NCBI GenBank assembly: GCA_030390025.1
Contig: CM059432.1
Location: forward strand, 59,584,001-59,648,000
Source of the DNA: Squalus acanthias
Taxonomy: Eukaryota
Length of the DNA: 64,000 bases
Direction of reading: 5' to 3'
Shown here: piece by piece, positions 4,255 to 63,989 of the stretch
Layout: each line of letters starts with the position of its first letter
Numbering within the stretch: position 1 is the first letter of the stretch
Notes under the pieces: generated by a model
What the model was told of the DNA's origin: nothing
What the model saw: the letters and a program-made list of their open reading frames with translations, nothing else
Database searches by the model: none
Program-made: the position numbers and the translations under genes

Positions 4255-4717
4255 AAATAAAAAAAAAGACAGACTTACATTTATATAGTGCCTTGCACGA
4301 CCTCAGGACGTCCCAAAGCGCTTACAGCCAATGAAGTACTCTATTTTATTGAAGTGTAATCACTGTTGTCATGCAGAAAACGCGGCAGCCAAGATGCGCA
4401 AAGCAAGATCCCACAAACAATGAGATAATGACCAGATAATCTGTTTTAGTGATGTTGATTGAGGGATAAATATTGGCCAGGACACCAGGGATAACTCCTA
4501 TGCTCTTCTTAGAAATAGTGCCATGTGATCCCAGGTCATGGGACGTGACAGAGCAACTCAGTTCATCTGAAAGACGGCACATCCAACAGTGCAGCACGCC
4601 CTCAGTACTACAGTGGAGTGTCAGCTTAGACTTGTGTGTTCAAGTCTCTGGAGTGGGGCTTGAACCCACAACCTTCTGGCTCAGAGGTGAGAATGCTACC
4701 AACTGAGCCACGGCTGA
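4255..4717 (-). mobile_element. tRNA-derived Deu-domain-type SINE (SacSINE1/AmnSINE1-like) with L2-type 3' tail
   Basis: Minus-strand head tggctcagttggt...gggttcaagccc; body shared with 6570, 19155, 24201 and 58520; flanked by an actaa duplication. Confidence 0.85.
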
Positions 4718-8815: not shown

Positions 8816-9241
8816 TTGTACAGGTTTCACATTAACAATCTGCTCTACTGAAGCACAGGGTCCTCAAGATAGGTGATGTTTAGGTAGTTGCTCAGCACAT
8901 TTATAAGATAGCTTACTCGAATAAAGCCATGATGGCAGCACTAATAAGACCCCCCAACTCAGCTTATGCCTTGAAACAAACTAGTACTAGATTGCTGCCA
9001 CTCAGATGTTTCAGTTACATATCCAAACAATTTGATTTGATATTCTTAATATAAAATTGTTCATCTGGTTAAAGTATTCCAGAGTACGACATTGCACATA
9101 CACAATCAAAGGTCAACAATTCGCAGAGGTTTGGAAATAAAGTAGATGTCAACAAGCTGCTGATAACTCATCGGCAGCAGCAACGCAGAACGTACAACGA
9201 GTGCATCCTTACCATTCACTCACATTCAAACCCACCATACT

Positions 9242-11251
9242 ATTTTTAATTCATTCACGGGATGTGGGCGTCGCTGGCAAGGCCAGCATTTATTGCCCAT
9301 CCCTAACTGTCACTGAGAAGGTGGTGGTGAGCTGCCTTCTTGAACCACTGCAGTCCGTGTGGTGAAGGTACTCCCACAATATTATTAGGTAGGGGGTGCA
9401 GAACTTTGACCCAGTGATGATGAAGGAAGGGAAATATATTTCCAAGTCAGGATGACGTGTGATTTGCAGGGGAACTTTGAAGTGGCGGTGTTCCCATGCG
9501 CCTGCTGTCCTTGTCCTTCCAGGTGGTAGAGGTTGTGGTTTGGGAGGTGTTGTTGAAGAAGCCTTGGCGAGTTGCTGCACACTGCAGCCACGGTGCGGGG
9601 AGTGAATGTTTAAGGTGGTGGATGGTGTGCCGAACATGCAGGCCGCTTTGTCCCGGATGGTGTCGAGTCTCTTGAGTGTTGTTGGAGCTGCACTCATCCA
9701 GGCAAGTGGAAAGTATTCCATCACACTCCTGGCTTGTGCCGTGTAGTTGGTGGAAAGGCTTGGGGGAAGTCAGGAGATGAATCACTTTCCGCAGAATACC
9801 CAGCCTCTGACCTGCTCTTGTAGCCACAGTATTTATGTGGCTGGTCCAGTTAAGTTTCTGGTCAATGGTGACCCCCCCAGGATGTTGATGGTGGGGGATT
9901 CCACGATGGTGATGCCATTGATTGTCAAGGACAGGTGGTTAGACTCTCTCTTGTTGGAGATAGTCATTGCCTGGCACGAATGTTACTTGCCACTTATCAG
10001 CCCAAGCCTCAATGTTGTCCAGGTCTTGCTGCATGCGGGCTTCATTATCTGAGGAATTACAAATCGAACTGAATGTCCTTTGGAGAAAGAAACCTGCCAT
10101 CCTTACCCTGTGCAATCAGAGAGCATCCCCACTTCTGACCTTATGATGGAGGGAAGGTCATTGGTGAAGCAACTGAAGATGGTTGGGCCTAGGACACTGC
10201 CCTGAGGAACTCCTGAAGCAACATCCTGGGGCCAACATTATTGGCCTCCAACAACCAGAACCATCTTCCTTTGCGCTAGACATGACTCCAACCAGTGGAA
10301 AGTCCCCCCCCCCCCACCCCCCATTCCGATTGATTTCAATTTTACATGGGCTCCTTGGTGCCACACTCGGTCAAATGCTGCCTTGATGTCAAGGGCAGTC
10401 ACTCTCACCTCACCTCTGGAATTCAGCTCTTTTATCCATGTTTGGACCTAGGCTGTAATGGCACCTGGAGCTGAGTGGTCCTGGCGGAACCCAAACTGAG
10501 CATCGGTGAACAGGTTATTGATGAGTAAGTGCCGCTTGATACCACTGTCAACGACACCTTCCATCACTTTGCTGATGATTGAGAGTAGGCTGATGGGGCG
10601 ATAATTGGCCGGATTGGACTAGTCCTACTTTTTGTTGATCAGACATACCTGGGCAGTTTTCCACATTGTCGGGTAGATGCCAGTGTTGTAGCTGTACTGG
10701 AACAGCTTGGCTAGAGGCGCAGCTAGTTCTGGAGCACAAGTCTTCAGCACGACAGCTGGGATGTTGTTGGGGCTCATAGCCTTTGCTGTATCCAATGTGC
10801 TCAGCTGATTCTTGAGTGAATCAAACTGGCATCTGTGATGGTGGGCAACTCAGGAGGAGGCCGAGATGGATCATCCACTCAGCACTTCTGGCTGAAGATG
10901 GATGCTAATGCTTCAGCCTTTTCTTTTGCACTCACGTGCTGGGCTCTGCCATCGTTGAGGATGGGGCTGTTCATGGAGCCTGTTCCCATTATTTGTTTAA
11001 TTGTCCACCACCATTCATGACTGGATATGGCAGGACTGAAGAGTTTTGATCAGATCGGTTAGTTGTGGGATTGCTTAGCTCTGTCCATAGCATGCTGCTG
11101 CTGCATGCATGTAGTCCTCATCTTCAGGTACACTTGGTGCTGCTCCTGGCATGCTCTTCTACACTTCTCATTGAACTAGGGTTGGCTGCCTGGCAATGAT
11201 AGAGTGAGGGATATGCAGGGGCATAAGGTTACAGATTGTAATGGATTACAG

Positions 11252-11286
<35 letters not shown>

Positions 11287-12306
11287 ATGGCCCACAGTGC
11301 CTCATGGATGCCAAGTTTTGAGTTGCTAGATCTGTTCATTTGGCACACAACACAAATGGAGGGTGTCCTCAGTGTGAAGACTGGACTTCGTCGCCACAAG
11401 GTTGTGACTCCTACCAATACTGTCATGTACAGATGCATCTACGACAGGTAGATTGGTGAGGCCTAGGACAAGTAGGTTCGCTCACTACCTGCCGCAAGCC
11501 TAGTCTGGCAGACTTGATCAGTAGTGGTGCTACTAAACCACTCTTGGTGCTACTGAGCCACTCTTGGTGATGGACATTGAAGTCCCCCACCCAGAATACA
11601 TTTTGTGCCCTCGCTACCCTCAGTGCTTCTTCCAAGTGGCGTTCAATATGGAGGAGTACTGAATCATCAGCTGAGGAAGGACGGTAGGTGACAATCAGCA
11701 GGAGGTTTCCTTGTCCATGTTTGACCTGATGCCATGAGGCTTCACGGAGTCCGGAGTCAATGGTAAGGACAGGCCATACCCTGCGATGGTGATGGGACAT
11801 TGGCTGATAGTCATACTCACAAAATCATACCCATGTCAGGCTTTTGCTTGATTAGTCTGTGGGACAGCTCTCTCAATTTTGATACAAGTCCCCAGATGTT
11901 AGCGAGGAGGACTTTGTAGGGTCTGGGTGCGCCTTTGTCATGTCCAAATCCAATGCCTAGGTGGTCTGTCCTGTTTTATTCTTATTATACCTTTTTGTAG
12001 CAGGTTTGGTACAACGGAGTGGCTTGCTCAGCCATTTCAGAGGGCAGTTAAGAGTCAACCACATTGCTGTGGGTCTGGAGTCACATATAGGCCAGATGGC
12101 AGGTTTCCTTCCCTAAAGGACATTAGTGAACAATCTGATAGCTTCATGATCACCATTACTGTTGCTAGCTTTTTATTCCAGATTTATTTAATTAACTGAA
12201 TTCAAATTCACAAACTGCCTTGGGGGATTTGAACTCATGTCTCCGGATTAATAGTCGAGACCCCTAGATTACTAGTCCTGTAACATAAACACTATGCTAC
12301 CGTACC
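9242..12306 (-). mobile_element. Near full-length single-ORF CR1-group (Zenon-like) LINE with tRNA-like 5' head (copy A)
   Basis: Head with A box (12289-12299) and B box (12225-12234), then APE (WVGDFNVHHQEW), RT, and 3' end gggatgggcaataaatgctggcc...cacatccc; collinear with 15483-18138. Confidence 0.88.
11254..11286 (+). repeat. (CTG)11 microsatellite
   Basis: Read directly; the homologous site has only about 3 units in other copies. Confidence 0.95.
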
Positions 12307-12537
12307 AGTTACTGTAATTCCAGCTGTCTTTCCAACCTCGTAAAAACACTAAACATCACAGCAGACACCAATCTCAAAAGCAGTCATTAAACCATTTTCA
12401 TTCAATGAGAATTGGCAGTGCAAATGGCAAAAATTTCATTATTACAACTCTAAATTAACCTTGAAGTTCAAATTAATGCACAGGACTCTACAATTAAATT
12501 TCTTCCCACTGATCAATTGCTTCATCGTATAATAAAA

Positions 12538-12930
12538 GACATGAATTTATATAATGCCTTTCACGACCACCGGACGTCCCAAAGCGCTTTACAGCCAATG
12601 AATTACTTTTGAAGTGTAGTCACTGTTGTAATGCAAGAAATGTGGCAGCCAATTTGCACACAGCAAGCTCCCACAAGCAGCACTGTGATAATAAGAGGCT
12701 GTAAAGATCACTGTACTTGCTGCAATGGCATTGGTTTCTAGTGTGACTGAATGGTAAGAATACAGTCACTGCAAATACTTCCTATCTGTTACCAGTCCAG
12801 CCTTGGCTCAGTGGTAGCACTCTCACCTGAATCAGATGGTGTGGGTTCAAGCCCCACTCCAGAACTTGAGCAGATACTCCACTCAGAAAACAGCTCAGTA
12901 CTGAAGGAGTACTGCATTGTTGGAGGTGCT
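12538..12930. mobile_element. Two Deu-type SINE fragments (3' part on minus, tRNA head on plus)
   Basis: 12538-12690 matches the SINE tail; 12795-12930 has tggctcagtggtag...gggttcaagccc. Confidence 0.75.
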
Positions 12931-12939
12931 TTGTTTGGG

Positions 12940-15410
12940 AATATTGGAGCACGAGCAGGCCATTCAGCTCCTCGAGCCTATTCCGCCATCTGTTAGATCA
13001 TGGCTGATCTGTATCGCCAATCCCTTTACCCGTCTTTGCTCTATATCCCTTGGTACCCTTACCCAACAATGATCTATTGATCTCAGTCTTGAAAATTTCA
13101 ATTGATTCAGCATCCACAGCCTTTTGGGTGTTGAGTTTCTGATTTCCACTGCCCTGTGTGCGAAAAAGTGCTTCCACATTTCACTCCTAAATGGCTTAAC
13201 TCAAATTTTAAGATTATGCCGCCTTTACATAGGATATACGGCACAGAAACAGGCCATTTGGCCCAACCAGTCCATGCCGGCATTTATGCTCCACACGAGC
13301 CTCCTCCCGTCTTTCCTCATCTAACTCTATCAGCATAACCCTCTATTCCCTGCTCCCTCATATGCTTATCTAGCCTCCCCTTAAATTCATCTATACTATT
13401 CGCTTCAACTACTCCCTGTGGTAGCGGGTTCCACATTCTCACCACTCTCTGGGTAAAAAAGTTTCTTCTGAATTCCCTATTTGATTTCTTGGTGACTATC
13501 TTACATTGATGGCCTCTAGTTATGCTCTCCCCACAAGTAGAAACACGCTCTCTGTATCCACTCTATCAAAACCTTTCATAACTTTAAAGGCCTCTATTAG
13601 GTCACCCCTCAGCCTTCTCTTTTCAAAGAGACTCAGCCTGTTCATCCTTTCCTGATAGGTATAACCTCGTATTTCTGGTATCATCCTTGTAAATCTTTTT
13701 TGCACCCTCTCCAGTGCCTCTATATCCTTTTTATAATATGGCGACCAGAACTGTAAACAGTATTCCTAGTAGTCATTGTTCTGGATACCCACACTAGAGG
13801 AAATAGTTTCTCTATCTACCCTTGCAAATCCCTTTATCATTTTAATCACCTTGATTAGATCACCCCTCAACCTTCTAAACTCAAGGGAATACAACTAAAG
13901 ATTAAGCAACCCATTCTCAATTTAACCCTTTAAGGCCCGGTATCATTCTGGTGAATCTGCACTGTATCCCCTCCAAGGCCATTATATTTAACCTGAGGCT
14001 CGGTGCCCAAAACTGAACACAGTATTCCAGATAGGGTCTGACCAAAGCTCTGTACAACTGAAGCATCACTTCCTCACTTTTGAATTCCAACCCCCTCAAG
14101 ATAAAGGCCAACATTCCATTAGCCATTTTGATTATTTTTTGTACCTGTACACTAGCTTTTAGTAATTTGTGTGCATGGACTCAAATCCATTTGCTTCTCC
14201 TTCTTCTCTTAGGCAGTCCCTCGGAACTGAGGATGACTTGCTTCCACATTAAAAATTAGTTCTCAGGTGACTGATGAGTCCAGGACCTGCAGTCTCTGTC
14301 ACAGGTAGGGCAGACGGTGGTTGAAGTGCTTGGGTTGACGTGCGCTCGGTTTCCGCAGGCTCCCAGCGAAGAGACTCGAGGTGTTCGGCGCCTTCCCGGA
14401 TGCTTCTCCTCCACTTTGTGCGGTCTTGGGCCAGGGATTCCTAGGTGTCAGTGGGGATGTTGCACTTTTCAAGGAAGCTTTGAGGGTGTCCTTGAAGCGT
14501 TTCCTCTGCCCACTTGGGGCTCTCTTGACGTGTCGGAGCTCCGAGTAGAGCACTTGTTTTGGGAGTCTCGTATCGGGCATGCAGACGATGTGACCTGTCC
14601 ATTGGAGCTGATCGAGCGTGGTCAAAGCTTCGATGCTGGGGATGTTGGCCTGAGCGAGAACACTGACGTTGGTGCGCCCATCCTGCCAATGGATTTGCAG
14701 GATCTTGCGGAGGCAGCGTTGGTGGTACCTCTCCAGTGCTTTGAGGTGCCTGCTGTACATGGTCCATGTCTCTGAGGCATACAGGAGGGCGGGTATCACT
14801 GCTGCTCTGCAGACCATGAGCTTAGTGCCGGGTTTGAGGTCCTGGTCTTCAAACACTCTCTTCCTCAAGCGACCGAAGGCTGCACTGGCACACTGAAGGT
14901 GGTGTTGGACTTCGTCATCGACATCTGCCCTTGTTGATAGTAGGCTCCCGAAGTATGGAAAGTGGTCCACGTTGTCCAAGGCTTCTCCACAGCTCAATGT
15001 CTCTCACCATTAAGAAAATATTCTGACTTGTCTTTCTCAGATCCAAAGTGGATGACCTTACACTTCCTCACATTGAACTCCACCTAATCCTTCATTAACA
15101 TACATGGTGAAAAGCTATGGGCCCAGTACAGATTTCTGAGGAACATGACTTGGCACATCCCATTAATCAGAGAACATTCCTTTTATCCCAACTCTGACTC
15201 CTACCTCCCAACCAATTACCGACCCATGTCACAAGGTCACCTCCAATTCTGAGTGCTCTCATTTTTTGCATGAATCTCTTGTGCAGAATGTTTTCTGAAT
15301 GCTCTTAAGAACATCCAGACACACTCCTCCATCCACCATGCTAGTGATCATTCAGAAAATTCAACTTGATTAGTCAGTTATGACCTACTCATCACAAATC
15401 TATGTTATAG
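12940..15410 (-). mobile_element. Nested CR1 3' fragments (outer copy interrupted by a CR1 at about 13225-13765 and an RTE at 14201-14980)
   Basis: ORFs 12964, 13520 and 13917 show CR1 C-terminal motifs [17 protein letters not shown] and RRLRGDLIE. Confidence 0.88.
14201..14980 (-). mobile_element. RTE-clade LINE, 5'-truncated
   Basis: ORF 14299-14997 has FPYFGS, ASAAFGRL, LLYASETW, RCLRKILQIHWQD and RLPKQVLYSEL; AAG-rich tail; 8-bp TSD gcttctcc (14193-14200 / 14981-14988). Confidence 0.92.
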
Positions 15411-15482
15411 CATTTTAAACATCCTATCTAGCCAGTCACACACCATTTTCTGATCAAAACAAATGTTACAATGTGAAATGGA

Positions 15483-18138
15483 GGGGTACGGTAGCATAGT
15501 GATTATGTTACTGGACTAGCAGTCCAGAGGCATGTTCAAATCCCACCATGACAGCTGGGGAATTTAAATTTAATTAAATAAATCTGCAATAAAAAGCTAG
15601 TATCAGCAATGGTGACCATGAAATGACCAGATTATTGTAAAAATCCATCTGGTTCATGTCCTTACCTGGTCTGGCCTATATGTGACTCCAGACCCACAGC
15701 AATGTGGTTGACTCTTAACTGCCCTCTGAAATGGCCTGGCAAGCCACTCAGTTGTACCGACTCAGCTATGACAAAGTATAAGAATAAAACCGGACGGAAC
15801 ACCCAGCATCTGATTCGGACACGACAACGGCACACCCAGTCCAGTCGACCTTGCAAAATCCTCCTAACTAATATCTGGGGACTTGTGCCAAAATTGGGAG
15901 AGCTGTCCCACAGAATACAGAATAGAATCATAGAAATTTACAGCACAGAAGGAGGCCATTCGGCCCTTCGCATCTGTGCCGGCGAAAAAGAGCTATCCTG
16001 CCTAATCCCACTTTCCAGCTCTGGAAGAAGCACTGAGGACAGCAAGGGCACAGAATGTACTCTGGGTCGGGGACTTCAATGTCCATCACCAAGAGTGGCT
16101 CGGTAGCACCACTACTGATTGAGCCCTGAAGGACATAGCTGCGAGACTGGGCTTGTGGCAGGTGGTGAGAGAACCAACACGAGGGGAAAAACCTCATTCT
16201 CACCAATATACCTGTCACAAATGCATCTGTCCAAGACAGTATTGGTAGGAGTGAACACCGCACAGTCCTTGCGGAGACAAGACCCATCTTCACACTGAAC
16301 ACCCTCCAACGTACTAAATGGGATAGATTCAGAACAGATCTAGCAGCTCAAAACTGGGCATCCATGAGGCGCTCTGAGCCATCAGCAGCAGCATTGTATA
16401 CCACCACCATCTGTAACCTCATGGCCCGGCATAGCCCTCACTCTACCATTACCATCAAGCCAGGGGACCAACCCTGGTTCAATGAGGAGTGCAGAAGAGC
16501 ATGCCAGAAGCAGCACCAGGCGTACCTAAAAATGAGGTGCTAACCTGTTGAAGCTACAACACCACGTGATATCAAGAAACGGCTGAGCGCATTGGACACA
16601 GCAAAGGCTATGGGCCTCGCCATCATCCCAGCTGTAGTGCTGAAGACTTGTGCTCCAGAACTAGCCTCTAGCCAAGCTGTTCCAGTACAGCTACAACACT
16701 GGCATCTACCCGACAAAGTGGAAAACTGCCCAGGCATGTCCTGTCCGCAAAAAGCAGGACAAATCCAATCCGGTCAATTACTGCCCTATCAGCCTACTCT
16801 CAATCATCAGCAAAGTGATGGAAGGGGTCGTCAATAGTGCTATCAAGCGGCACTTACTCACCAATAATCTGCTCACCGATGCTCAGTTTGGGTTCCGCCA
16901 GGACCAATCGGCTCCAGACCTCATTACAGCCTTGGTCCAAACATGGATAGAAGAGCTGCATTCCAGAGGTGAGGTGAGAGTGACTGCCCTTGGCATCAAG
17001 GCAGCATTTGACTGAGTGTGGCATTAAGGAGCCCTAGTAAAACTGAAGTCAATGGGAATCGGGGAAAACTTGCCACTGACTGGACTCATACCAAGTACAA
17101 TGGAAGGTGGTTGTTAGAGGCCAATCATCTCCGCCTCAGGACATTGCTGCAGGAGTTCCTCAGGGCAGTATCCTAGGCCCAACCATCTTCAGCTGCTTCA
17201 TCAATGACCTTTCCTCCATCATAAGGTCAGAAGTGGGGATGTTCGCTGATGATTGCAGTGTTCAGTTCCATTCACAACTCATCAGGTAATGAAGCAGTCC
17301 ATGCCTGCATGCAGCAAGACCTGGACAACATTGAGGCTTGGGCTGGTAAGTGGCAAGTAACATTCTTGCCACACAAATGCCAGGGAATGGCTATCTCCAA
17401 CAAGAGAGAGTCTAACCACTTGTCATTCCCTTGACATTCAATGGCATTACCATCGTCGAATCCCCCACCATTAATATCCTTGGGGTAACCATTGACCAGA
17501 AACTTAACTGGACCAGCCACATAAATACTGTGGCAACAAGAGCAGGTCAGAGGCTGGGTATTCTGCAGCGAGTGACACACCTCCTGACTCCCCAAAGCCT
17601 TTCCACCATCTACAAGGCACAACTAAGGAGTGTGATGGAATACTCTCCACTTGCCTGGATGAGTGCAGCTCCAACAACACTCAATAAGCTCAACACCATC
17701 CAGGACAAAACAGCCCGCTTGATTGGCACCTCATCCACCACCTTAAACATTCACTCCCTCCACCACCGGCACACCGTGGCTGCAGTGTGTACCATCTACA
17801 AGATGCACTGCAGCAACTCGCCAAGGCTTCTTTGACAGCACCTTCCAAACCCACGACCTCCATCACCTAGAAGGACAAGGGCAGCAAGTGCATGGGAACA
17901 CCACCACCTCCTAGTCACACACCATCCTGACTTGGAAATATATTGCCATTCCTTCATTGTCACTGGTTCAAAATCATGGAATCCCTACCTAACAGCACCT
18001 TGGGAGTACCTCCACTACACGAATTGCAGCAGTTCACGAAGGCAGCTCACCACCACCTCCTCCTCAAGGACAACTAGGGATGGGCAATAAATGCTGGCCT
18101 TGCCAGTGATGCCCACATCCTGTGCATGAATTTTAAAA
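15483..18138 (+). mobile_element. Near full-length single-ORF CR1-group (Zenon-like) LINE with tRNA-like 5' head (copy B); CR1 tail inserted at about 15914-16020
   Basis: A box 15492-15502, anticodon-like arm 15511-15527, B box 15534-15543; then ILLTNIWGL, GDFNVHH, QFGFR, GVPQGSILGP, FADD and YKAQLRSVMEY. Confidence 0.9.
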
Positions 18139-18438
18139 CCGTCTCCTGTCTTCCATTTTGCAACTAAAGAGAGCGACCTCCATTTTAAATCCTAGTTACT
18201 GAAACTATATAAAACTGAATATACAAACTAGTATTTTTAATCAGTAATCTTCATTAAATCCTCTCTTACTCAAGTAACAGACCGTCATCAGAGTGTCAAG
18301 ATGCTAACTTGTAACCTTTTCAGTCAAGCCTAGAGATTTTGCAAAACACGAGAACATTTCAGTTTCAGATCCTCAGACTTTAGCTGTCTCACTCACATTT
18401 GCAGAATAGCTTGCCTTACTTAAACATGCAAGTGTTCA

Positions 18439-18615
<177 letters not shown>

Positions 18616-19154
18616 CTATGATTCGACAAATGATTCACCATTAGTGCCCTAATTTAAATTCCAAGCTTATCTTTTTACCGCCTGCACATAATTTAAACCA
18701 CTAGGCCAGCATAAAAATGAAGACAGCTTGTTCTATCAAGAAATAGAAAGGGTATACGAGAACAGGAAAGTTCAGTCAGAGCTAGTAAATCCAATGCATG
18801 AATGCTTCTGAATCAGTACATAAACCATAAAAGGCAGTGTTCAGCTTGACCTGGTATTTGTAAATGACCAAGAAAATGTAATGGAAATCGAAAACATGGT
18901 ATCCTTGAGCAACAGTGACTACAAAAAACCCAAAGTTAAAAATATTTGATTGAGAAATACCGCCAAACAGAAGCTAGACATGCCATTTTAAAAGGGCTAA
19001 CTTCAAAGAAAATGAGGGAACAATGTAAACAGGTTGATGGGGAGGGGATGTTAAACGACATGTGGAACACCTTTAAACAGATATAATGTTGAGCATAACA
19101 TACCTAGAATCAGCAAGCTCAGACTAAATGAGGATGGTCCTAAATCGATTATAC

Positions 19155-29099: not shown

Positions 29100-30470
29100 C
29101 AAGGCCATATATACTACTACCCATACCTAGTTGTTCTGAGATGGTGATGGTCAGCCCTCAGCACCCATCCAGAGGAGTGGTGAGTATTCCATAACATTCG
29201 TGACTGAGTCTTGTAGGTGGTAGGGCTCTTTCAGGGGTCAGGAGGTTAGATACATGTCACAGAATACCCAGCCTGTGCTCTACTCTTATATCCGTGATGA
29301 TGATACAGCTGGTCATTGTTGAACTTCTGGTCAGAGTTGACCACTGCCTCCCCACCCAAAATGTTAATAGTTAGAGATTTGACAATGATGGTGCCACTGA
29401 AGACCAGGGAGAGATTTTCAATGCCTGGCACATAAGTTGCACAAATGCTACTTGCCGCGTCAGCCCAAACCTAGATATTGTCTAAATCCTGAAGGCTGGC
29501 ATGGGTTGCTTCACCATAGGAGGAATTTCTGAATGGAATCATTAGCAAATAACCCCTTTCCTGACCTTATGATGAAGAGATCATCTTTGACGAAGCAGCT
29601 GAATACGATTGGGCCAAGGATGCTTCCCTGCGGAACTCCTGGGGGCTGTGATGATTGGCCTCTGACAACCACAACCATCTTCCGAATTGTCAAATATAGC
29701 TCCAGCCACTGGAGGATTTTCCCTTTAACCCTCAGTGTCCTCAGACTTGCTAAGCTTTTGGATGCCATATTAAGGTTGAATTCTGCAACACTCATCTCTT
29801 CTCTGCCATTCTGCTGAAGTCCGGAGCCGGGTGGCTCTGATGGAATTGAGCCCCAGCACTGCTTAATGGCACTACTAATGACTCCTTCCATCACATTGCT
29901 GCTGATTGGGAGGCAAGCGATAGGCTGGAATGTATTCAGTTTTTTGGTGATAGGACATACCTGAGCTGGGCAATTTTCCACATCGTCAGGTAGATGCCAA
30001 TGTTATTGCTCTTAAACAGTTTGGATGGATGGGGGTGGGGGAGAGAGAAGAGAAGAGAAGAAAGCTAGTTCTGTTGTGCAGGTCCAACACTACAGCCAGG
30101 ATGTTGTCCGCAGAGCACCGCAGCTTTCCAGCGCACTTAGCCGCTTATTCCACAATGATGACGACCTTAAGGGCAGACTGAGAACAGCTTGCTTGCCATT
30201 TTTATCTGAAAATACTTGCAAACACTTCAGTCTCAGCTTTTGCACTTGTGTGCTAGACTCCACCATGGCTGAAGATAGAAAATTTCATGGAACCTCCTCC
30301 TCCTGTTAGATTCCCGATTGTTGGCTGAATATGGTAGAGCTACAGATCTTTGCTCTGATCTGTTGGTTGAGAGATTGCGCAAGTCTGTCTACAGCCTACT
30401 GCATTTGGCATTTAGCATGAAGGTAGTCCTGTGTTGTAGCTTCACTAGGTTGGTACCTCATTTTAAAAGG
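29100..30470 (-). mobile_element. Old degenerate copy of the Zenon-like LINE (RT region)
   Basis: ORF 29511-29981 has VMEGVISSAIKQ and GVPQGSILGPIVFSCF. Confidence 0.8.
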
Positions 30471-31269
30471 TATCCCTGGCACACCTTTCCTGTAACTGCA
30501 TCTGCTTCTTTCCCATTCTGTAATTCTTCTGCGTTGCACTCAGTTTGTCTTCCACCCTTTTTATGTCAGACACTATTCTCACTGTGGCATCCATCACCAA
30601 CTTTCTTAGTGTCTTATTCTTTGTGTTTCTCCTCCCATCTCTTCTGTATGTGTGCAGTGTCCATGTGTTTCTCACACTTGTTCCTTTTAACGATATATGC
30701 AATACCTATCCGTTACCTTTAAGTCTAGGATGCACAGAAAGATGACAGGCAACATGAACAAGAGAGAAGCAGGAAGAGCTGGTGTAACATGAGAGGTTGA
30801 GAGGGATGACAGGACTGAAGGTAAATTCAGGAGGAACCAGGCAATGTGGCAGAAAGGTGTTATAATTAGTGGGAGCTAGCAGAGAGGGCAATGGCAGAAC
30901 CCGAGTGCTCCTGAGGTAATGAAGTATGGGATCAATAGGGATTGGGAATATGCTGAGACTGCAGTCTTGGCATGGTAGGATTTGGGAATCACCTGGTTTT
31001 GGCAGCATTCATGGGAAGGGCGAGGGAACTGGAAACAATGGGAGAGAAGGATATAGTTTCTGGTAATACTCAGGGGAGTGCAAGAGTATTCAAGGGAGAA
31101 AATGTGGAGACGGTGAGCACTCAGGAGGTTCCAGGCAGTCAAGGAAGAGCTTTGGAGTATCAGAGGCTCAGCACTAGATGGAATGGGCTCTGTGGTGTGG
31201 CTGCAATGTGGGAGATAACGAAGCAGCATATGCCAGCCTACAACAGGATAAGTTCTAGAGGTGGGCTGA

Positions 31270-34200
31270 CAAGTGGTAGGTAACATTTGCTCTACATCTT
31301 GAACAAGAGAAAGCCCACCCACCTCCCCATGACCTTTAATGGAACCAGAGTTCCCCCACTGGGGGTCACCACTGACCAGAAAGTGAACTGGACTTGCCAC
31401 ATCATTTACCTAGCCCCACAGAAAGTTGATTGTTAGTTACAAAAGCAGGACAAAGTCTGGGTACTCTGACAAATTACTCACTTTCTGACCCCTCAAAGCC
31501 TCTCCACCAGACAAGATTCAAGTCAAGAGTGTGATGGAATACTCACCTGGAAGGGTACAGCCGCAACAACACTCAAGCAGCTAAACACAATCCAAGGCAG
31601 AGCAGTTCATTAGATTGGTGCCCCATGCCACTCTACTCTATATCCATCCCCTCCATCACTGGTGCACTGTGGCCAGTATTTATTGCCATCCCTAATTGCC
31701 CTTGAGAAGGTGATGGTGAGCCGCCTTCTTGAACCTCTACAGTCTGTGTGGTGAAGGTACGCCCACAGTGCTGTTAGGGAGGGAGTTCCAGGATTTTGAC
31801 CCAGCAACAATGATGGAATAGCGATACATTTCCAAGTCAGGATGGTGTGTGACTTGGAGGGGAACTTGGAGGTGATTGTGTTCCCATGCGCCTGCTGCCC
31901 TTGTCCTTCTAGGCGATACAGGTCACGGGTTTGGGAGGTGCTGTCAAAGAAGCCTTGGCGAGTTGCTGCAGTGCATCTTGTCGATGGTACACACTGCAGC
32001 CACGGTGCAGCGGTGGTGGAGGGAGTGAATGCTTAAGTGGTGGATGGGGTGCCAATCAAGTGGACTGCTTTGTCCTGGATGGTGTTGAGCTTCTTGAGTG
32101 CTGTTGGAGCTGCACTCATCCAGGCAAGTGGAAAGTGTTCAATCTCACTCCTGACTTGTGCCTTGTAGATGGTGGAAAGACTTTGGGGAGTCAGGGGGTG
32201 AGACGCTCACCGCAGAATATCCAGCCTTTGACCTGCTCTTCTGGCCACACTATACATGTGGCTGGTCCAGTTAAGTTTATGGTCAATGGTGACCCCCCCA
32301 GGATGTTGATGGTGCGGGATTCGACGATGGTAATGCCATTGAATGTCAAGGGGTGGTGGTTAGACTCTCTCTTGTTGGAGATAGTCATTGCCTGGCACTT
32401 GAGTGGCGCAAATGTTACTTGCCACTTATCAGCCCAAGCCTGAATGTCATTCAGGTCTTGCTACATGCGGGCACAGACTGCTTCATTATTCTGAGGAGTT
32501 GCGAAAGGAATGAACACTGTAATCATCAGCGAACATCCCCACTTGCAGCTGAAGATGGTTGGGCCTAGGACACTGCCCTGAGGAACTTCTACAGCGATGT
32601 CCTGGGACTAAGATGATTGGCCTCCAACAACCACAACCACCTTCCTTTGTGCTTAGTAATGACTCCAGCCTGTGGAGAGTTCTCCCCCTGATTCCCATTG
32701 ACTTCAATTTTACTGGGGCTCATTGATGCCACACTCAGTTAAATGCTGCCTTGATGTCAAGGGCAGTCACTCTCAACTCACCTCTGGAATTCAGCTCTTT
32801 TGTTCGTGTTTGGACCAAGGCTGTGGAGCCAAGTGGTCCTGGCAGAACCCAAACTGAGCATTGGTGAGCAGGTTATTGGTGAGTAAGTGCTGCTTGATAG
32901 CACTGTCAACGATACCTTCCATCACTTTGCTGATGATTGAGAGTAGACTGATGGAGCGGTAATTGGCCAGATTGGATTTGTTCTGCTTTTTGTTGACGGA
33001 CATACCTGGGCAATTTTTCACATTGTCAGGTGGATGCCAATGTTGTAGCTTTACTGGAACAGCTTGGCTAGAGGCGCGGCTAGTTCCAGAGCACAAGCCT
33101 TCAGCACTACAGCTGGGATGTTGTCGGGGCCCACAGCCTTTGCTGTATCCAGTGCGCTCAGCCATTTCTTAATATCATGTGGAGTGAATCGAATTGGCTG
33201 AAGACTGGCTTCTGTGATGGTGGGGACCTCAGGAGGCCGAGATGCATCATCTAGCTGAAGATGGTTATGAATGCTTCAGCCTCGTCTTTTGCACTCATAT
33301 GCTGGGCTCTGCCATCATTAAGGATAAAGATGTTAATGGAGCCTCCTCCTTCCATTAGCTGTTTAATTATTCACCACCATTCACGACTGGATGTGGCAGG
33401 AATGCAGAGCTTTGATCGGTTTTGGTATTGCTTAGCTCTCGTTGTGGGATCGCTTAGCATGCTGTTTCCATGGTTTAGCATTTGTGTAGTCCTGTGTTGT
33501 ACCTTTACCAGGTTGGCACCTCATTTTCAGGTATGTCTGGTGCTGCTCCTGGCATGTACTTCTACACTCCTCATTGAACCAGGGTTGGTCCCCTGGCTTG
33601 ATGGTAATGGTAATGTAGAGCGAGGGATATGCCGGACCATGAAGTTACAGATTGTGGTGGAATACAATTCTGCTGCTGGCCCACAGCGTCTCATGGAGGC
33701 TCAGTTTTGAGCTGCTAGATCTGTTCTGAATCTATCCCATTTAGCATAGTGGTAGTGCCACACAACACGATGGAGAGCGCCCTCAGTGTGAAGACAGGAT
33801 TTAATCTCCACAAGGATTGTGCGGTAATCACTCCTACAAACACTGTCATGGACAGATGCATCAGTGACAGGTAGATTAGTGAGAACGAGGTCAAGTAGGT
33901 TTTTCCCCTCGTGTTGGTTCTCTCACCACCCAGTCTGGCAGCTATGTCCTTCAGGACTCAGCCAGCTTGGTTAGTAGTGGTGCTACCGAGCCACTCTTGG
34001 TGATGGACTCCCCCACCCAGAGTATGTTCTGTGTCCTTGCCACCCTCAGTGCTTCTCCCAAGTGGTGGTCAACATGAAGGAGTACTGATTCATCAGCTGA
34101 GGGAGGGCAGTAGGTGGTAATCAGCAGGAGGTTTCCTTGCCCATGTTTGACCTGATGCCATGAGACTTCATGGGGTCCGGAGTCAATGTTGAAGTCTCCG

Positions 34201-34660
34201 AGGGCCACTCCCTCCCGACTGTATACCACTGTGCCGCCACCTCTGGTGCATCTGTCCTGCCAGTATTGGTAGGAGTGACCACCGCACATTCCTTGTGGAG
34301 ATGAAATCCCATCTTCAGGCTGAGGACACTCTCCATCGTATTGTGTGGCACTACCACCATGCTAAATGGGATAGATTCAGAACAGCATCTGCTTCCTGTA
34401 ATTTTACCACCAAGAAGTACAAGAGCAGCAACGTTGTGGGAATACCATCACCTCAAAGTCACGCATCATCCTGACTTAGACATTACATCACCTTCTTTCA
34501 TTGTCGTCAGGTCAGAATTCTGGAATTTGCTACCTAACACCATTGTGGAATCAGCATCACAACAAGGACTACAATGGTTCAAGGAGAAAGCCCACCACTA
34601 CCTTCTCAGGGCAACAAATGTGGCCTTGCCTATATCGCCCACATGCAAGAACAAAAATGC
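31270..34660. mobile_element. Zenon-like LINE copy C (minus, about 31670-34262, with an inverted segment at 34261-34390) inside an older plus-strand copy (about 31270-31670 and 34390-34660)
   Basis: NYRSISLLSIISKVMEG and HQVKHGQGNLLLITTY on minus; the flanking plus-strand pieces are collinear 3' portions of the same family. Confidence 0.85.
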
Positions 34661-46377: not shown

Positions 46378-47495
46378 TGACAAAGCCAATCCAGCCAATT
46401 ACTGCCCCATCAGTCTACTCTCAATCATCAGCAAAGTGATGGAAGGCGTCATCGACAGTGCTCTCAAGCGCCACTTACTCACCAATAACCTGCTCACCGA
46501 TGCTCAGTTTGGGTTCCGCCAGGATCACTCGGCTCCAGACCTCATTACAGCCTTGGTCCAAACATCGACAAAGAGCTGAATTCCAGAGGTGAGGGGACAG
46601 TACTGCCCTTGACATCAAGGCAGCATTTGACAGTGTGGCATCAAGGAGCCCTAGTAAAATTGAAGTCAATGGGAATCAGGGGGAAAACTCTCCACTGGCT
46701 GGAGTCATACCTAGCACAAAGGAAGATGGTTCTGGTTGTTGAAGGCCAATCATCTCAGCCCCAGGACATCGCTGCAGGAATTCCTCAGGGCAGTGCCCTA
46801 GGCCCAACCATCTTCAGCTGCTTCATCAATGACCCTCCCTCCAACATAAGGTCAGAAATGGGGATGTTCGCTGAATACTGCAGTGCTCAGTTCCATTTGC
46901 AACTCCTCAGATAATGAAGCAGTCCATGCCTGCATGCAGCAAGACCAGGACAACATTGAGGCCTGGGCCGATAAGTGGCAAGTAACATTTGTGCCACACA
47001 AGTGCCAGGCAATGACCATCTCCAACAAGCAAAAGTATAACCACCTCCCCTTTGACATTCAATGGCATTACCATCGCCAACTTTCCCAACATTATCAACA
47101 TCAACATCCTGGGGGGTCACCAGTGAGCAGAATTTTACTGGACCAGTGACATAAATACTGTGGCTACATGAGCAGGTCAGAGGCTGGGTATATTCTGCGA
47201 CGAGCGAGTCACCTCCTGATTCCCCAAAGCCTTTCCACCATCTGCAAGGCACAATTCAGGAGTGTGATGGAATACTCTCCACTTGCCTGGATGAGTGCAG
47301 CTCCAACAACACTCCAGAAGCTCGATACCATTCAGGACAAAGCAGTCTGCTTGATTGGCACCCCGTCCACCACCTTAAACATTCACTCACTCTACCACTG
47401 GTGTACCATGGCTGCAGTGTGTACCATCTACAAGATGCACTGCAGCAACTTGCCAAGGCTTCTTAGACAGCACCTCCCAAACCTGCGACCTCTGC
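46378..47495 (+). mobile_element. Zenon-like LINE RT fragment (copy D)
   Basis: NYCPISLLSIISKVMEG, GIPQGSALGP and MEYSPLAW. Confidence 0.92.
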
Positions 47496-58973: not shown

Positions 58974-60581
58974 CCTCAAATATAAAGCACATTGCAGATA
59001 TGTTAATGATTTTTAAATGGCACCTCGATGAAGAAAGAGTGCATGTTGCATCCAAAGTTGAGTGAAAATTAAATGCATGGAATTAGACATGCTCCCAAAA
59101 CTAACTTAACTGCTATAGTTATCACAAAAAAATAATTGAGGGCTTACAGGAAACACAAGATTTGGATCTTCCAAAACCTATTTATGTTGGTCAAGAACAC
59201 TTCAGGGACCCGGAACAGAATATTAAATCATATTTACCACAACAGATTAAGATTTATTGCAACATATTAAACCCAAGTAAGTTACACCGTTCAGTAACGG
59301 AGCGTTGCCTTATAGTCAGTCAAAGTCACTTAATTTGAATTAAAATTGTGCTAAATAGCCTTCGCTACTACTTTGCTTAATTCAAATTACCGGATCAATT
59401 TTTTCTGGACAAGAATGACTTGGAATTATCAGGAGTGGAATTTATCACATTAAGCAAGTAGATTCTGACTCTGTGGAGAAGTGTAAACCTAGAAGAGTTA
59501 GAATGTACTTTACATTCTGCAGATTAACACAATCAGGCTGTTGTTATTCACCATGTGCACACACACATTGTCCATCTCAACTCATCATCAATATGTCTTT
59601 TGATCAAGGAGTCCTATGAAGAACACAGTTTTGATTGACCTAGCTTCCTGCTGAAAGGGACTGCATGAGGTCAAAAAGTATATTTTTCATTCTTTTTCTG
59701 TAAATTTTCTATCCTAAAAACGTGGTATGTGTTAACATAGACAGTATCAGCAGGCTATTTGACTGCATAGGGCATCACAGCCAAGCACAGACCTGTTCCA
59801 TCATCCTCTACATTTAATATGGACAAGAATATTGACCGCAACATCCATTTTCAAGCTGCCTGAGCAAAATGCATCCTTACAGCCCAGCTGAGGATAGTCA
59901 ACTCAGCACAGACTGGGAATCAATCTGGGAACTTCCTAATCCACATGACTCAAATGCTTACTGCTTTAACCAGCTGAACCATCGGGAATGTGGAAACAAG
60001 TTGTTTTTTTTTTAAATTAGGTATATTAATTCTCCCTGTCTTTGTTGAAAGGAGCAGGAGAATGCTACATGGCTGAAAATTGACCTTTGGGAACATTGTG
60101 GCAAAAAGTAAAAACAGAGCAGCATTTCAGCTCTTGTAGCCAGTGTTGTGCATACCTCTTAACAACAGGATACTTTGTCAATCTCAGATCAAAATTGAGA
60201 AGTCGCACAACACCAGGTTATAGTCCAACAGTTTTATTTGAAATCACAAGCTTTCGGAGTTACTGCTCCTTCGTCGGGTGAAGTAAAGAGATACAGAATC
60301 GCCAAAGCATATATAGATAGAGAACAATGCATGTGTACCTTACAATGGCAGACAACTAAATTTAATCATCCTGACTGTTTATCTGCCGAGGTGTGACAAA
60401 AGGCAATCAGGTCAGCCAGGAACTTACCACATCAAAGACATAGCAAGATACAACTGAGACAATGAGGTGGAGTCACAGGGGGTCTAACGTGTCAAAAGCT
60501 GCAAAACGATAAACTTTAAAATTTTTACTTTTTTACTGGGAATCACATCTGGGAACAAGCCAACGACGACTCGAGTCCGGA

Positions 60582-61343: not shown

Positions 61344-61669
61344 CGATACATGACGTGATCCGGACTCGAGTCGTCGTTGGCTTGTTCCCAGATGTGATTC
61401 CCAGTAAAAAAGTAAAATTTTTAAAGTTTATCGTTTTACATACAGACTGCAGCTTTTGACACGTTAGACCCCCTGTGACTCCACCTCATTGTCTCAGTTG
61501 TATCTTGCTATGTCTTTGATGTGGTAAGTTCCTGGCTGACCTGATTGCCTTTTGTCACACCTCGGCAGATAAACAGTCAGGATGATTAAATTTAGTTGTC
61601 TGCCATTGTAAGGTACACATGCATTGTTCTCTATCTATATATGCTTTGGCGATTCTGTATCTCTTTACT

Positions 61670-61706
61670 TCACCCGACGAAGGAGCAGTAACTCCGAAAG
61701 CTTGTG
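61670..61706 (+). ncRNA. Hammerhead-like motif in pLTR (variant core CCGACGA); mirror copy at about 60244-60281 on minus
   Basis: tcac-CCGACGA-a-ggag-cagtaa-ctcc-GAAA-gctt-gtga. Confidence 0.55.
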
Positions 61707-63364
61707 ATTTCAAATAAAACTGTTGGACTATAACCTGGTGTTGTGCGACTTCTCAATTTTGTCCACCCCAGTCCAACACCACAATCTCAGATCAGTCATG
61801 GGTATCCCAACCCCATCCTATTCTGAATGGGTTGGCGGTTCTGTTCTGGCTGACAGCAGCACACGGGAAATTACTTTGGAAAACGAAGGCAGGAAATGCT
61901 GGGTTTAGAATCTGGAAGCATTAACAGCAGTAAAGACATCAAAGCATTCAAACTAACAGTGTGGCCAATTGTGAGCGAAGTGTAAAAAACATCCATTTCA
62001 AAAAAAGTGTCCTATTTGCTGAAGGTGTGTCTGACAACACAGAATAGGAGCCAACTTAGACACCCACACATTAAGGAGCCACACCTGTAAGCCTCAAATT
62101 GAAAGTCACGCATCTGAAACTTAACACCTCCAGATGAATTCTGCATCACAAATGGCACAAAATACAGGAAATGGAATTTTATCTCCTCATGAATAAACAC
62201 GAGAATCAGAGCGGAAGTTAAAATGTACAAACTCAAAACCCTCATTCGGTCCTGAGCTTCTTACCCCCTGTAACTTGATGCAACAATAATAAACATTCAA
62301 ATGTTTTTCTAAAAGGCTCGTCTATTTGATTCTTAGTATACCTAGATAAATAACGCCATTTATTGTCTCCGTACTACAAGGTTTTAGAAGACTGAATGAT
62401 AAATAATTTGCTGAAACAGAAATGTACATCAAAAAACATGTATGTTCTGGATCAAAATACACTCTAGAATTAATTAGAAGGTATACAGTACTTGAGGAAA
62501 AAAATAAATGCAAATAAACTTATCTAATCTACCCAAAATCTGTGGTCTAACTTATCCTGGTAAAGCTCACTTAAAACAACTGCACTGTTACCTATATTTT
62601 AAGCATTTTTCCCAAGTTAGGAACCACATTCAATTTAGGCAAGAATTTAACCACAGCATCCATTTTCAAGCCACTTGGGCAAAACATTCTTGTTACAACC
62701 CACAAAATACTGCCTATCAGATTTGAAAATTGTTGTTCTTAAAAATTGATAAATGTACATATTGAGGGGGAGGGGAGAGCTCTCCAAAAATTTTAAAAGC
62801 CCTTTCAAAGTTGATGTCATTGCATACTACAGACCTAAAGCAACTGATACCTTTCACCTACTACAGATGAAACTACCACTTTTGCAAAGGAAAAAAAACA
62901 CACACCAGATCAATAAATATACTTTCAAGTCAAGTCACTCATGTCACCACAAGATCAGTGTAGCCTGCTGAGCACCATAAATGGCTGCTTGTATGTGTGG
63001 CTAAAAGCCTTGTCTGGGAGGAGTCACAAGCAGGAATAGATTCAAGCAGTTATTGGATTACAGGGGAATGGTATGATGAAATGCAGATATCTGGATTTTA
63101 CATGCATGAAGTCATGTAGTAAGTGCAAAGGTACAGGTTGCACAGCATATTTATGTACCAATGTGCTGTGCCAGCACATGTTAAGACACATGCCTACTAG
63201 GAAGCTTGGGGAGAGGGGATAGAGAAGAGAGGCAACCGAGAAGATTAAGGTGGTTAACTATTGTTTCTTACACACACCTTCTAGCATCCCTTTATACACC
63301 AACCTTGGCAGAGACTCTGAATATTTGTTGCCTCACTGTCCATCCTCTTGGCTGACTGTACATA

Positions 63365-63989
63365 ATTGAGAGGTCGCACAACACCAGGTTATAGTCCAAC
63401 AGTTTTATTTGAAATCACAAGCTTTCGGAGCTATCGATCGCCCCTTCCTCAGGTGAAGTAAAGAAATACAGACTCGACAAAGCATATATAGAACAAAGCA
63501 TGTGTACCTTACAATTGCAGACAACTAAATTAAATCATCCTGACTATCTGCCGAGGTGTGATAAAGTTAATCAGGTCAGCCAGGAAGGTACCACATCAAA
63601 GACATAGCAAGATACAACTGAGACAATGAGGTGGAGTCGCAGGAGGTCTAACGTGTCAAAAGCTGCCGTCTGTATGTAAAACGATAAGCTGTAAAATTTT
63701 TACTTTTTTACTGGGAACCACATCTGTGAACAAGCCAACGACGACTCGAGTCCGGATCACGTCATGTATCGTGACATAAACCCAAGATCCCGGTTGAGAC
63801 CGTCTTCATGAGTGCGGAACTTGGCTATCAGTTTCTGCTCAATGATTTTGCGTTGTCGTGTGTTCCTAAGGTTGCCTTGGAGAACGCTTACCCGCAGATC
63901 CGAGGCTGAATGTCCTTGACTGCTGAAGTGTTCCCCGACTGGGAGGTAACAATCCTGCCTGGTGATTGTTGCGCGGTGCTCGTTCATAC
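63365..63989 (-). mobile_element. Second Penelope copy (GIY-YIG C-terminus plus pLTR)
   Basis: ORF 63757-63987 is nearly identical to 60582-60833; pLTR homologous to 60196-60596. Confidence 0.92.
63415..63456 (-). ncRNA. Minimal hammerhead ribozyme motif
   Basis: Minus strand reads tcac-CTGAGGA-a-ggggc-gatcgata-gctcc-GAAA-gctt-gtga. Confidence 0.7.

Follow-up and report, generated by a model that had tools for sequence, protein, structure and literature searches.

LINEs are described as Pol II transcripts, and Pol III is regarded as weakly processive, in the account given in PMC10886601. SINEs cannot encode protein according to PMC5786205, where RTE and Vingi are the only LINEs reported to contribute their 5' part to a SINE. 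TTTT and TVTTT are the minimal Pol III terminators; in the constructs described in PMC8466645, termination reached 65% for TTTT, 50% for TCTTT, 42% for TATTT and 20% for TGTTT. For sharks, 'CR1-Zenon like' LINEs were named in the whale shark (10.1101/443036), and PMC5499810 treats shark SINEs whose bodies are Deu or CORE and whose tails are L2. The literature searched contained no description of an autonomous LINE that bears a tRNA head or is transcribed by Pol III. The family described below may already be catalogued, for instance in Repbase or Dfam, without a Pol III reading.

The window is the whole stretch of 64,000 nucleotides from Squalus acanthias that was analysed. Four copies of one LINE family, A to D, were located in it and are listed in Table 1. 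Copy B as the query gave 40,813 first-look candidates in the 3.7-Gb genome and the N-terminal half of the protein gave 223,838, neither of which is a copy number. A 5' query was used to fetch 38 further loci; 27 were kept, and 11 that were short or interrupted were dropped. The 27 fetched loci and the four window copies were aligned as a set of 31 copies, with the last 12 nt of each trimmed. The family consensus was 3,316 nt long (T 19.7%, A 27.7%, C 29.2%), and the 31 copies were 89–96% identical to it. Besides substitutions, the alignment revealed numerous short deletions within the copies, together with small inversions. Older fragments of the same family, strongly decayed or inverted, were observed around copy C (29161-30450, 31213-31682 and 34247-34644). 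The first of these was considered as a headless sister family and rejected, since as a query it only retrieved the same tRNA-headed LINE family at 70–76%. Elsewhere in the window, 60190-60503 and 61448-61761 formed the arms of a near-perfect inverted repeat of 314 nt, and a direct copy at 96% lay near 63675 (63563-63974). With its terminal inverted repeats, the segment 60190-61761 is a young element.

Table 1. Copies of the tRNA-headed LINE family and the control element in the window.
Feature	Position	Strand	Remarks
Copy A, decayed LINE, nearly full-length, tRNA-like head present	9242-12306	minus	89% to family consensus
Copy A, tRNA-like head	12215-12306	minus	A box ~12289-12299, B box ~12225-12236
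Copy A, remnant of single endonuclease and reverse transcriptase frame	9315-11909	minus	tblastn
Copy A, micro-inversion, 24 nt	~11807-11830		creates the only sense T4 of copy A (11821-11824); alignment
Copy A, 3' end	9242-9294	minus	AATAAA 9289-9294, short hairpin, T2, A tail
Copy B, head-bearing	15485-18140	plus	A box ~15492-15502, B box 15534-15543, AATAAA 18086-18091
Copy B, only T4	18131-18134	plus	directly before A tail
Copy C, 5'-truncated, no head	31671-34262	minus	no sense T4
Copy D, internal fragment	46379-47493	plus	a single T4 (47133-47136), private to this copy
Control, ordinary decayed CR1-type LINE	1-2280	plus	12 sense T4+ runs (by eye)

The coding capacity and copy pattern of the family were evaluated on the consensus and on the better-preserved copies. 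The consensus carried a single frame of at least 934 codons for an endonuclease and a reverse transcriptase, and PF14529/PF03372 and PF00078 of Pfam matched the better-preserved copies. The dispersed copies were raggedly truncated on the 5' side, whereas their A-rich 3' end was fixed. By the two enzymes in one frame and by its copy pattern, the element corresponds to an autonomous APE-type LINE. Its nearest named protein relative (80%) was from the shark Heptranchias perlo. The CR1 clade in the strict sense has an ORF1 upstream of the endonuclease–reverse transcriptase frame. No ORF1 was found upstream of that frame here, the distance from the start of the head to the frame being only about 340–440 nt, and the one leader frame of at least 80 codons (99 codons) was overlapping. 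The first in-frame Met lay far behind the start of the endonuclease, and no in-frame AUG preceded the endonuclease. In many copies (e.g., L237:440-590), an AUG-started frame of approximately 47 codons overlapped the endonuclease start in another phase. The stability of the folded 460-nt leader was ordinary (z −0.13).

The 5' head of the element contained matches to the A and B boxes. In two better copies, the head reached 25 bits against the Rfam tRNA model (E 0.002), which is below the gathering score of 29. The anticodon arm was tandemly duplicated in the head (e.g., L052:4322-4406, minus), with an A-to-B-box distance longer by approximately 21 nt. An Rfam scan of window positions 9000-19000, five loci and 17 relatives gave no ribozyme and no known SINE-body family, and the only match across the window, loci and relatives was the sub-threshold tRNA in L052. 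ARAGORN reported no tRNA in the window or in 60 of the 80 metagenome relatives described below, results that are uninformative because ARAGORN also misses the heads. The head began at a sharp common boundary, at the same base and next to unrelated flanks, in 26 of 38 loci selected with the 5' query. For a selection by protein only, the 20 plus-strand matches among 85 listed were taken; five of these copies reached the tRNA part, the other 15 were truncated at various positions within the same leader, and no other shared 5' end occurred among the 20. The head is the only 5' end of the family.

A 465-nt SINE consisted of the first 345 and the last 120 nt of the LINE (e.g., L060:2723-3188). This derivative was abundant, as both parts were spanned by all 40 scored matches. 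Similar joints between head and tail, at varying junction positions, were present in assembled contigs, of uncertain RNA origin, from four further organisms (one run each). A second, unrelated SINE-like family occurred in several copies in the window (12528-12930, and near 4277, 6570, 19150 and 58513); this family may resemble Deu-type shark SINEs.

The 3' end of the element followed the order AATAAA, short hairpin, T-run of variable length and A tail. AATAAA was present in 27 of 28 valid rows, one of 29 rows having been dropped for wrong coordinates. A T4+ run stood directly before the A tail in 8/28, 2/16 and 7/29 copies of three 3'-end sets, the last counted by eye. The set of 16 comprised those of the 20 protein-selected copies that reached the 3' end, and these were the best-preserved copies. 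The T-runs before the A tail of T+ SINEs lengthen with age according to PMC8466645. The 3' T-runs of this family may likewise grow after insertion, given that they were rarer in the best-preserved copies (2/16).

The initial annotation had described the sense strand of the family as purged of TTTT, and its counts were reproduced for all four copies. The single sense T4 of copy A lay inside the micro-inversion, copy B had none before its terminal run, copy C had none, and the run in copy D was missing from the other copies at that place. The numbers of A4+ runs were 15, 16 (counted over 15482-18140), 10 and 3 for copies A to D, respectively. The control CR1 was rich in sense T-runs as claimed, with lengths from T4 to T7. 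In the 31 copies (91,520 nt), 16 sense T4+ runs were counted versus 432 of A4+, 270 of C4+ and 226 of G4+; these counts were not independent because the copies descend from one template. The contrast between A4 and T4 was rejected as evidence, since it mostly reflected composition. The consensus contained no T4 and seven T3 runs.

The absence of T4 from the consensus was then compared with shuffled sequences. Under mononucleotide shuffling, 4.0 runs were expected (P 0.011). The depletion was not significant beyond the dinucleotide control (1.6 expected, P 0.17) or beyond a synonymous-codon shuffle of the 934-codon frame (1.9 expected, P 0.106). The suggested preference for TTC over TTT at Phe codons was not borne out either; the ratio was 15:3 versus 109:52 at the other two-fold C/T codons (Fisher P 0.28). 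The scarcity of sense T4 is hence real, and T4 alone goes only marginally beyond base composition. With only 1.6–4 runs expected in a T-poor strand, the absence of T4 by itself is weak evidence, and the T4 count alone was rejected as proof of Pol III because the expected number was too small. The shorter runs were more informative. Five T3 runs were observed in the frame versus 11.6 under codon shuffling (P 0.003), and A3, C3 and G3 were not depleted under the same shuffling. For T3, dinucleotide shuffling gave a borderline result (P 0.055), and C3 and C4 were also low under that null.

The other terminator-type words were evaluated in the same strand. By eye, the consensus contained no TVTTT, no TTTVT and one TTVTT. 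For TTTT and TVTTT together, none was present versus approximately four expected (P ~0.015, a first-order estimate by hand with no shuffle). All four-of-five-T words amounted to one versus approximately nine expected, again by hand and with overlapping classes. The TVTTT expectations were hand estimates from the run counts of the consensus. Six element-only genomic loci had 2, 1, 1, 0, 1 and 1 sense TVTTT, i.e., six in 19,046 nt, and three relatives had 7 in 2,377 nt, 9 in 3,018 nt and 17 in 3,663 nt. Individual family copies had 0–2 private internal terminator-type sites each. T4+ and TVTTT sites together numbered 0, 0 and 1 in the family copies L153, L247 and L237, which contained two, two and three four-of-five-T windows in the element, respectively. 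The mirror motif on the other strand was also rather low, with 8–10 per copy versus approximately 14 by hand estimate. Both strands together held 9–11 TVTTT motifs per copy versus 16–18 in shuffles of the six loci.

Elements outside the family were examined for the same words. Two young CR1 pieces of the same genome had six T4 in 1,886 nt and three in 1,281 nt, approximately the rate predicted by their composition (T ~24%). The wider comparison set consisted of 80 metagenome relatives with protein identities of approximately 40% at best, many of them in 5'-incomplete contigs. The relatives were not equally depleted: at least three sense T4 were present in nine of the ten fully listed relatives, all of which are distant. 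The numbers were 5, 5, 11, 11 and 9 in L071, L072, L073, L074 and L085, and 0, 3, 17 and 15 in L130, L156, L158 and L161, with several dozen in L157. Within the first ten positions listed, flanks included, 78 of the 80 relatives had a sense T4; of the other two, L142 had two further on and L130 had none. The composition-matched relative L156 (T 20.2%, 5' end missing) had three T4+ runs, only one of them in its coding part, and four TVTTT in 3,099 nt. The counter-example L130 had no sense T4 in 3,018 nt (T 23.6%, 35 A4 runs) and kept nine TVTTT. It is a LINE of another subgroup (54-2792) with at least 912 aa, a C-terminal Cys/His motif and a missing 5' end; one T4-free relative in 80 is near what chance allows. 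A pair of A and B boxes upstream of the frame was found in none of the 80 relatives, many of which are 5'-incomplete. Viral contigs gave one unrelated fragment and no match for L130. The 74 contigs L156-L229 encode eukaryote-type LINE proteins in prokaryote genome assemblies and most likely represent contaminating host DNA. Phe was low both in an amphioxus relative (13 of 846 residues, counted by hand) and in the family (18 of 934). Because low Phe is common to the two and the strand is T-poor, the effect may partly be inherited composition.

The initial annotation had read the T-run pattern as selection for readability by Pol III and as independent support for its preceding finding. The first part received moderate support from the relatives, T3 and TVTTT, and was not supported by the dinucleotide and codon nulls for T4 or by the Phe bias. 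The pattern did not amount to independent proof, the T4 nulls being P 0.17 and 0.11; since relatives were less depleted, TTT was depleted and TVTTT was absent, it supports Pol III moderately. Taken with the head, the data lead us to lean towards a formerly autonomous single-frame LINE with a tRNA-derived type-2 Pol III promoter, transcribed by Pol III. In this mechanism, Pol III would start at the tRNA-like head and read through 3.3 kb. A variant with TTTT or TVTTT would stop early, lose the 3' hairpin for reverse transcription and leave no offspring, and the coding strand would thereby be kept free of both words. A T-run lying at the 3' end or shortly after it would terminate transcription, and AATAAA, located approximately 40 nt upstream, may allow polyadenylation as in mammalian T+ SINEs. 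The lack of an in-frame AUG before the endonuclease suggests a non-standard translation start on an uncapped RNA. Target-primed reverse transcription would proceed from the 3' hairpin, and the 465-nt deletion derivative of head and tail would use the same enzyme as a SINE. The fuller picture is that of a natural Pol III mRNA. A 3.3-kb coding RNA would be polyadenylated in the manner of T+ SINEs, its translation would need neither a cap nor an in-frame AUG, and a SINE would arise from the LINE through a simple deletion of internal sequence; in our estimate, this picture is as probable as its opposite.

Transcription by Pol II was weighed against this mechanism and is considered rather unlikely. 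The LINE would have captured the 5' part of a SINE as a UTR and be read from a promoter in the leader of 350–450 nt or by read-through from the host, and the few T words would follow from a T-poor, A/C-rich coding strand; selection against polypyrimidine tracts or U-rich processing signals may have added to the effect. The T4 nulls and the Phe test (P 0.28) agree with this explanation, as do the single T4 in the coding part of L156 at the same T content and the T4-free L130. AATAAA and an A tail are compatible with Pol II, a coding RNA needs translation, for which a capped RNA is suited, and Pol II is the default in the accounts of PMC10886601 and PMC5786205. However, this explanation does not predict a 5' end that coincides exactly with intact A and B boxes, the joint absence of TTTT and TVTTT by the above hand estimate, the depletion of T3 with amino acids and codon counts fixed, or the occurrence of T4 at the expected rate in the two young CR1 pieces of the same genome.

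A division of labour between the polymerases is improbable in our judgement. Pol III would make the template RNA, and the protein would be supplied in trans from Pol II transcripts of other copies. The head and the purge of T-runs would then be explained with no need to translate uncapped RNA, and the 465-nt derivative is evidently served by the enzyme in trans. However, an open frame of at least 934 codons is most easily maintained if the copied RNA is also the translated one, and the lack of an AUG in frame ahead of the endonuclease is a poor match for ordinary translation of a capped RNA. Almost no credence is due to the view that a SINE and a LINE lie side by side or nested by chance and that the four copies lack T4 by accident: SINE-type copies often adjoin LINE copies in the fetched loci, but head and body were co-linear in dozens of loci with unrelated flanks, the same T4 pattern recurred in 31 copies, and the staggered truncations on one template among the protein-selected copies already refute it.

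If Pol III transcription of the family is correct, an abundant vertebrate LINE would break the working rule by which Pol II transcribes LINEs, SINEs cannot code and the weak processivity of Pol III precludes an autonomous element. Long Pol III transcription and cap-independent translation could then be studied in a natural system, and the family would provide a route from LINE to SINE without a template switch. The question of the polymerase is directly testable because natural copies with long open frames exist.

The element can be compared with several known systems. Single-frame LINEs of the CR1 group in Branchiostoma, Amphiura and decapods likewise encode an endonuclease and a reverse transcriptase in approximately 930–950 aa, at 33–46% identity. 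Unlike the family described here, the metagenome relatives examined carried sense T4 (L130 excepted) and TVTTT, and none of the 80 had an upstream pair of A and B boxes. The tRNA-derived head with A and B boxes is common to SINE2 elements and this family, whereas short length and lack of coding capacity apply here only to the 465-nt derivative. Bov-tA/Bov-B and SINE2-1_ACar/Vingi-2_ACar, as described by Kojima (2018, PMC5786205), likewise combine a tRNA head, a LINE 5' part and a 3' tail and are mobilised by a LINE. In those pairs, the head is described only on the short element and the LINE is taken as a Pol II transcript (PMC5786205), whereas in the present family the head forms the start of the full-length coding element. 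The TRIMp3 elements Cassandra, Helenus and Ajax are also retroelements other than SINEs with a Pol III promoter derived from a small RNA; they are non-autonomous LTR elements, however, and their autonomous partners are argued to need Pol II (PMC10886601). The mammalian T+ SINEs B2, Dip and Ves, in the description of PMC8466645, likewise combine A and B boxes in the head with AATAAA close to the 3' end and a variable T-run just before the A tail. B2, Dip and Ves are short and non-coding (PMC8466645), whereas the present element is 3.3 kb long, contains an endonuclease–reverse transcriptase frame and mostly has T1–T2 before its tail.
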